Source: a virus (Duplodnaviria; Heunggongvirae; Uroviricota; Caudoviricetes). From it: 10,537 nt of DNA. The stretch lies in IMG/VR virus record IMGVR_UViG_2671180608_000012. One strand, 5' to 3'. The position numbers and the translations under genes were made by a program. The notes under the pieces are model-generated. The model did no database searches. It saw nothing but the letters and a program-made list of their open reading frames with translations, and had not been told where the DNA came from. Positions 9,751 to 10,413 of the stretch are shown here, piece after piece; the first letter of the stretch is position 1; each line of letters begins with the position of its first letter.

Positions 9751-9831
9751 CTGTAATAAGTTGCTCTAGAGATTCCTAACTCTTCCTGAATCTGCAACCT
9801 CGTCTTACCTTGTGAAATAAGCGTCTGTACA
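9751..9831. repeat. 81-bp duplicate of the recombinase 3' end (78/81 identical to 9875-9955), next to an N-run
   Basis: Three mismatches against 9875-9955; two are synonymous in the recombinase frame and one gives T/M. This copy continues into ...ATYYRLAK and a stop at 9738-9740. Confidence 0.7.
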
Positions 9832-10413
9832 NNNNNNNNNNNNNNNNNNNNNNNNNNNNNNNNNNNNNNNNNNNCTGTAATAAGTTGCTCTAGAGATTCC
9901 TAGCTCTTCCTGAATCTGCAACCTCGTTTTACCTTGTGAAATAAGCATCTGTACAGCCTCTGAAGAAGCTTTTACAGGTCTTCCCATATGTACCCCTTCA
10001 GCTTTAGCACGTTCAATACCAGCCTTTCTACGCTCTGCTATCAAGCTTCTTTCAAGCTGTGCCAACGTTGACATAATGCCTAACATTGCTTCACCCATAG
10101 CGCTTGATAAGTCAAATCCTTCTCTAAGGCTGATAACTGTCACACCTTTAGCCTGTAGCGCTTTAACCGTTGATAACACATCAATTGTGTCACGTCCAAG
10201 ACGGTCTACAGCTACCACAACTACGGTGTCACCTTCTCGTGCATAAGCTAACAAACTGCTGAAACCGTTTCTTAAAGAAGCTTTGACAGAACCACTGACA
10301 GCTTCATCAGCGAACCATTTAGCAATGTTGTACCCTGCCTCTTCAATTTGCATTTGCTGGTTAGTGATGGATTGGTCATCTGTACTCACCCTGCAATATC
10401 CAAGTATCGCCAT
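9805..10413 (-). CDS. Small serine recombinase (resolvase/invertase family); 3' end interrupted by the N-run
   Basis: Start placed at MAILGYCRVSTDDQ (ATG 10411-10413, AAGGGA RBS), the conserved serine-recombinase N-terminus with catalytic Ser. Also DRLGRD and C-terminal HTH ...GISRATYY. The stop at 9805 is a frame artefact of the gap; collapsing gap plus duplicate gives a 183-aa protein ending RLAK with stop at 9738-9740. Confidence 0.75.
   Translation of the reverse strand: MAILGYCRVSTDDQSITNQQMQIEEAGYNIAKWFADEAVSGSVKASLRNGFSSLLAYAREGDTVVVVAVDRLGRDTIDVLSTVKALQAKGVTVISLREGFDLSSAMGEAMLGIMSTLAQLERSLIAERRKAGIERAKAEGVHMGRPVKASSEAVQMLISQGKTRLQIQEELGISRATYYXXXXXXXXXXXXXXXCTDAYFTR
9832..9874. other. 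Run of 43 N (assembly gap or masked bases) inside the recombinase 3' region
   Basis: Directly visible in the sequence. Confidence 1.

Follow-up and report, generated by a model that had tools for sequence, protein, structure and literature searches.

Hundreds of public draft genomes of Shigella sonnei were produced by a widely used, large-scale pipeline that runs Velvet, then SSPACE and then 120 rounds of GapFiller, and the authors of that pipeline pointed out that greedy programs can create false joins and that the contigs so joined are separated by Ns (PMC5320598). Known scaffold-gap artefacts are recognized by repeats that end at an N-run, by a gap of arbitrary length, by a join in multi-copy sequence and by a single copy of the repeat in gap-free assemblies. 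In IS-rich Shigella, the collapse of paralogs is a second known source of such errors.

We analysed a stretch of 10,537 nt, referred to here as the window, which is the public S. sonnei draft contig CXBW01000156.1 (GCA_001254115.1; 10537 bp) in reversed orientation. The three N-runs of the window are also present in that public record, which was recovered by an exact-sequence look-up with the Dam methyltransferase (8491-9153). Two near-identical 81-nt segments at 9751-9955 flank the third of them, and this locus has each of the features of a scaffold-gap artefact listed above; unlike a plain artefact of this kind, its two ends come from two paralogous genes rather than from one locus that was read twice. 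As in the paralog collapse of IS-rich Shigella, copies of IS600 and IS1 together with two islands break the assembly, and in sister drafts contigs end, and haplotypes are mixed, within the same recombinase gene; from this second system we found no difference. On the sequence comparisons described below, the apparent duplication is very probably an assembly artefact, that is, a chimeric S. sonnei scaffold in which the tail of the recombinase gene of a second island was placed across the Ns.

The 81-nt repeat and the recombinase gene that it interrupts

The direct repeats at 9751-9831 (copy a) and 9875-9955 (copy b) both lie in the minus-strand reading of a recombinase gene, are identical at 78 of 81 positions and start 124 nt apart. 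An identity of 96% over this length is far beyond chance. Both copies stop precisely at the edges of the 43 Ns, at 9831 and 9875, and their homology goes no further in either direction, as the sequence is cut off there by the N-run. Copy a has A at 9779, C at 9804 and G at 9823, where copy b has G at 9903, T at 9928 and A at 9947; counted along the gene on the minus (coding) strand, they correspond to positions 511, 486 and 467, in that order. Two of the three differences are synonymous, and one exchanges Thr and Met at codon 156. A sequence-only reading of the window had already described the repeat around the 43-N run in these terms, and its coordinates and differences proved accurate when they were re-derived. 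Its statement that a single 183-aa recombinase ending at 9738-9740 results when one copy and the 43 Ns (124 nt) are removed could likewise be reproduced: the merged ORF runs from the ATG at 10413-10411 to the TAA at 9740-9738 and encodes 183 aa. Its product is exactly the protein of the island that is called island Y below, and the version obtained with the other copy differs solely at residue 156 (Met/Thr).

The 183-aa protein matches the Pfam Resolvase domain (PF00239, E 1.1e-41) over residues 4-141, and the nucleophile serine sought near residue 10 is found as the catalytic Ser10 in YCRVSTDDQ (MAILGYCRVSTDDQ). A C-terminal HTH_7 match at residues 144-180 reaches 23.9 bits, with the cut-off at 23.8, and the alignment with gamma-delta resolvase is colinear over residues 1-181 (E 3e-30). 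By its sequence, the protein is assigned to the small serine recombinases of the resolvase/invertase family, among which it is not unusual; complete genomes annotate it as 'recombinase family protein'.

Within approximately 140 nt upstream of the recombinase start, we found five exact GTCTYAWAAG half-sites, against 0.21 expected by chance. The cluster occupies 10425-10537 of the window, where the contig ends inside it, and continues in the island-Y locus L024 at 4787-4908; it also includes degenerate sites and inverted pairs of ~28 and 33 bp, and its layout is reminiscent of a resolvase res site. With its 183 aa, a Resolvase domain followed by HTH_7, Ser10 in YxRVST and half-sites upstream, the recombinase is like the gamma-delta and Tn3 resolvases. 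Unlike a Tn3-type transposon resolvase, it ends a chromosomal phage-derived island that also carries a large serine recombinase of 506 aa.

Two paralogous islands and the assignment of each copy

Two phage-derived islands that are paralogous to each other are present in complete S. sonnei chromosomes, and one 183-aa recombinase gene is found in each. Island Y is located inside yecE (DUF72), and its order is yecE', the 183-aa recombinase, Dam, a RepO-like HTH protein, several small ORFs, a 203-aa ORF and IS600 (L019-L029). Island I is located between tonB and yciI, and its order from yciI is the 183-aa recombinase, ~1.5 kb of further sequence, small ORFs and IS1 (L009-L018), followed by ORFs of 71, 236 and 69 aa, a truncated tape measure gene and, further on, the 506-aa large serine recombinase. 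Both islands are present on the chromosome CP110404.1 (L017, L024), where the two small recombinase genes occupy 2294457-2295008 and 3000434-3000985; these genes are separated by ~705 kb and lie on opposite strands. CP104423.1 likewise carries both islands (L009, L025).

In E. coli and S. sonnei, the same two sites, within yecE and between tonB and yciI, harbour a family of islands of ~11-16 kb (L001, L002, L003, L004 and L009-L029). These islands are bounded by the 506-aa large and the 183-aa small serine recombinase and include tape-measure, Dit-like/baseplate, RepO-like and Dam genes. No capsid genes were seen in the loci of this family, and the majority of its ORFs have no PHROG or Pfam match. 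That there are two such islands, and that both encode one large and one small serine recombinase, can already be read from annotated complete genomes and is nothing biologically new.

The island-Y and island-I recombinase genes are 98.2% identical and differ at 10 of 552 nt, namely at gene positions 103, 159, 160, 162, 297, 432, 435, 467, 486 and 511. The final three (467, 486 and 511) are exactly the three differences between copies a and b. Copy a is identical over 81/81 nt to the yciI-site locus in 10/10 complete S. sonnei chromosomes (L009-L018) and also to two E. coli loci (L001 and L002), whereas it has 3 substitutions relative to every Y locus. It thus represents the island-I gene, and it forms the right end of a 423-nt piece of the scaffold (piece B). 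Copy b, which corresponds to gene positions 459-539 of the island-Y gene, as copy a does to the same 81 nt of its paralog, is identical over 81/81 nt to 11/11 yecE-site loci of complete chromosomes (L019-L029) and to six gap-free drafts (L005, L007, L008 and L030-L032), and it has the Y bases at the diagnostic positions 467, 486 and 511. It forms the left end of piece C (9875-10537), which carries the Y base at 10/10 diagnostic sites and over its 663 nt has 1 mismatch to the complete Y loci; the first 539 nt of the island-Y recombinase gene (codons 1-179) lie in this piece at 9875-10413 on the minus strand, with all 10 of these sites.

Copy a stands on the same piece as 154 nt of exact island-I spacer (9409-9562) that is absent from island Y. 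Because both copies match fixed island haplotypes and copy a is linked to this spacer, the three differences are real paralog differences and not errors; the copies differ at these fixed sites because they come from two paralogous genes. The impression of the sequence-only reading that the differences look like diverged real gene copies rather than sequencing error is thus borne out. Copy a does not have the haplotype of a local parent but that of the distant island-I gene, and, by these sequence matches, the genes from which the two 81-mers come are widely separated on the chromosome.

In 29/29 gap-free loci that include this portion of the gene, the 81-mer occurs once per locus, and it occurs twice only in the N-containing record; two contiguous copies on uninterrupted sequence were found in none of the gap-free S. 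sonnei or E. coli loci. Three N-free sister drafts whose Dam protein is identical (L005, L007 and L008), which are near-identical to the window with 1-6 mismatches over ~5 kb of shared island body (n=3), each have one uninterrupted 183-aa recombinase, and so do the complete E. coli and S. sonnei chromosomes. The suggestion that an overlap had been mis-joined with Ns therefore agrees with the gap-free assemblies, and its counterpart, a genuine tandem duplication, finds no gap-free locus with two copies in either species. A further suggestion, that the locus may hide a collapsed or mis-scaffolded second copy, holds in its second half: a second copy was mis-scaffolded, but none is hidden or collapsed at this place, and its own site adjoins yciI, ~705 kb away.

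When the window was aligned with the sister drafts, the complete S. sonnei chromosomes and E. coli, the blocks 8400-9346, 9522-9831 and 9875-10537 fell on overlapping reference intervals, with overlaps of 41 nt and 81 nt. Because the flanks of the 43-N run overlap by 81 nt in reference coordinates, this N-run marks the place where contigs were joined rather than continuous sequence that was masked. The window is 340 nt longer than the references, of which 216 nt (9347-9562) are extra relative to the complete Y loci and 124 nt belong to the repeat. Removal of 9347-9562 and 9751-9874 leaves 7063 nt (3135-9346, 9563-9750 and 9875-10537), which align without a gap to a complete yecE locus with 7 mismatches. 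Two candidates were rejected in the course of these comparisons. The complete E. coli islands made the 340-nt excess visible but, at an identity of <=95%, not the source of the variants, and E. coli Q5, considered as a contiguous model of piece B (95.7%), was dropped because its recombinase is just 80% identical to piece C.

The other pieces and joins of the scaffold

The window consists of four pieces: an island-I arm, IS600 with the island-Y body, the 423-nt piece that is mostly of island I, and the island-Y recombinase. They are separated by scaffold gaps of 12 N at 3123-3134 (N-run 1, between the island-I left arm and IS600/island Y), 27 N at 9382-9408 (N-run 2, between piece A, which ends at 9381, and piece B) and 43 N at 9832-9874 (N-run 3), all as in the deposited draft record. 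The sequence-only reading mentions neither of the first two.

The left arm (1-3122) holds a tape measure fragment and ORFs of 69, 236 and 81 aa, and all of its 3122 nt are 100% identical to CP000038.1, the chromosome of S. sonnei Ss046 (PMC6562246). In Ss046, the sequence of the arm continues for 27 nt and is then followed by IS1, not by IS600. The regions linked by N-run 1 are separated by ~700 kb in complete chromosomes of S. sonnei, and by this comparison the join at 3123-3134 is probably false as well. Because N-run 1 joins two islands, the window also has duplicated, diverged modules (1679-3150 and 4386-5873).

The second piece consists of IS600 and the island-Y body (3135-9346) and is 99.9% identical over 6212 nt to the yecE-site loci of complete S. 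sonnei. The IS600 element itself, at 3135-4404, matches at 99.8-100% and points to Escherichia/Shigella; it was the sole match when the whole window was compared by megablast with phages and plasmids. The Dam methyltransferase gene was recognized by Pfam at 8491-9153 on the minus strand. Its product, a Dam-family N6-adenine methyltransferase, has a C-terminal resolvase-type HTH (HTH_7, residues 175-215, E 1.8e-4, slightly below the Pfam cut-off). As predicted from its sequence, this combination of Dam with a resolvase-type HTH beside a resolvase gene is an unusual fusion.

N-run 2 is likewise flanked by a repeat, 9306-9346 and 9522-9562, which are identical at 40/41 positions. With a repeat-flanked run of 27 N on one side and one of 43 N on the other, the piece at 9409-9831 is thus bounded by two gaps. 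The first 41-mer is the island-Y version and contains the palindrome TTTTCAGA-G-TCTGAAAA; the second is the island-I version, in which the central G is changed to A. A 41-mer with TTTTCAGA-N-TCTGAAAA is common to all island variants of E. coli and S. sonnei and is the switch point at which alternative upstream and downstream intergenic spacer modules swap. Judged by this pattern, it may bind a protein or act as a hotspot of recombination.

We aligned the 423 nt of piece B with both islands of CP110404.1. Its left part (9409-9562, including the 41-mer) is specific to island I and is followed by a stretch that is common to both islands; at ~9601-9672, the piece has the form found in island Y and differs from island I by a 24-nt indel, and the 3' end of the gene, with the recombinase stop codon at 9738-9740, again has the island-I haplotype. 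In blast searches, piece B was 93.1% identical to island I, with 7 gap openings, and 98.7% identical to island Y over 9522-9831. This mosaic is either an assembly-graph or gap-filling chimera or a strain-specific allele, in which case island I of this lineage differs at that place.

Piece A ends with 35 nt (9347-9381, the 'beta tail'; TCGTAGTAGCCCCTCTTCAAATTCCCCTTCTAAAA) that had no match in the other S. sonnei loci that were fetched, from both islands, and none on plasmids. We also sought a third S. sonnei island as their supplier, and a look-up with a conserved 96-aa protein returned the yecE locus alone. E. coli TL-14 has an exact copy of the tail in its yecE island (L003, 10989-11023), and 106 complete E. 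coli genomes naturally have the arrangement with this tail. In the isolate, the 35 nt could be the remnant of a third island, a patch left by conversion or the product of contaminating reads. Neither the mosaic of piece B nor this tail changes the verdict on 9751-9955.

Origin of the join, alternatives and consequences

The following course of events would account for the scaffold. The recombinase genes and part of the adjacent spacer form a two-copy repeat of ~98-100% identity that short reads cannot separate. Because the genes and part of their downstream spacer are near-identical repeats, the assembler would have broken the contigs at the recombinase, and the scaffolder would have put the 423-nt piece at 9409-9831, mainly of island I, into island Y, with the Dam part on one side of it and the recombinase part on the other. 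The edges of the gap were presumably built or extended from reads of different paralogs, so that three paralog-specific mismatches may have blocked the merging of the overlap and left 43 N behind. The true island-Y locus would then have one intact recombinase gene, and the true island-I copy would be located ~705 kb away in opposite orientation, as in complete genomes. We infer that SSPACE/GapFiller made the join; GCA_001254115.1 was not found in the supplements of the paper that describes the pipeline (PMC5320598).

Further S. sonnei drafts point to the same gene. The contigs of L008, L031 and L032 terminate within it, and the sister drafts L005 (5741-6292) and L007 (1187-1738) have mixed I/Y haplotypes, with island-I bases at gene positions 159-162 (in L007 also at 103) and island-Y bases from 297 on. 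L007 moreover connects the yciI flank to the Dam-type island body, and the contig of the window ends 28 nt short of the point at which the flanks of L005 and L007 diverge. Because contigs end in this gene and haplotypes are mixed in it, it is a recurrent assembly problem. The mixed genes of L005 and L007 themselves are either collapse chimeras or the result of real gene conversion or exchange between the islands.

The position of both copies directly at the gap and the restoration of the gene by removal of 124 nt would also be expected if the overlapping contig ends belonged to one single-copy locus and the three differences were sequencing or consensus errors. This we consider extremely unlikely, as all three supposed errors are the fixed island-I haplotype, which 10 complete chromosomes of S. 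sonnei share with two E. coli genomes, and are linked on the same piece to 154 nt of island-I-specific sequence, which is unlike three random errors. Still closer to negligible is the probability that a data provider masked continuous sequence with Ns and that the copies are a genuine tandem repeat of 124 nt: N-masking of a few stretches has been described for one collection, but the flanks of a masked stretch would be colinear with gap-free relatives and separated by a positive distance, where we observed overlaps of 81 nt and 41 nt; the flanks also derive from different paralogs, and the NCBI record CXBW01000156.1 has the same Ns.

A biological origin could take two forms, each of them very unlikely. 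If an island-I segment had been inserted or tandemly duplicated in island Y, with truncation of the Y recombinase and Ns that stand for real bases, gene conversion could have yielded the mosaic of I and Y types seen in piece B. Against such a local rearrangement, the homology begins, at each of the two gaps, precisely where the contigs end on either side, a single gene is present in the three near-identical sister drafts and in every complete chromosome examined, and N-run 1 of the same scaffold joins loci ~700 kb apart as well, so that the scaffolding is unreliable. The other form, given an equally low probability, is a real inversion or gene conversion between the inverted islands through the recombinase genes or the res-like sites, by which the scaffold would in part be a true hybrid; the inverted orientation of the islands relative to each other, the mixed haplotypes of L005 and L007 with the yciI flank of L007 on a Dam-type body, and the clustered resolvase-type half-sites upstream of the gene are in keeping with it. 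However, the 10 yciI-site and 11 yecE-site loci of complete chromosomes have pure, site-specific haplotypes and flanks, the mixed haplotypes are confined to short-read drafts, and an inversion would not yield two 81-mers 124 nt apart. Taken by themselves, the mosaic of piece B and the mixed haplotypes of the sister drafts are unlikely, though somewhat less so, to reflect genuine conversion or recombinase-mediated or homologous exchange instead of assembly chimeras. The mis-scaffolding of two paralogous recombinase genes thus remains by far the favoured reading of 9751-9955, and there is no real local duplication in this segment.

The main value of this result lies in quality control, as CXBW01000156.1 appears to be chimeric at all three of its N-runs. 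The scaffold as deposited splits an intact recombinase gene and fuses islands that are ~700 kb apart, and gene-content or synteny analyses that rely on CXBW01000156.1 would therefore be misled.
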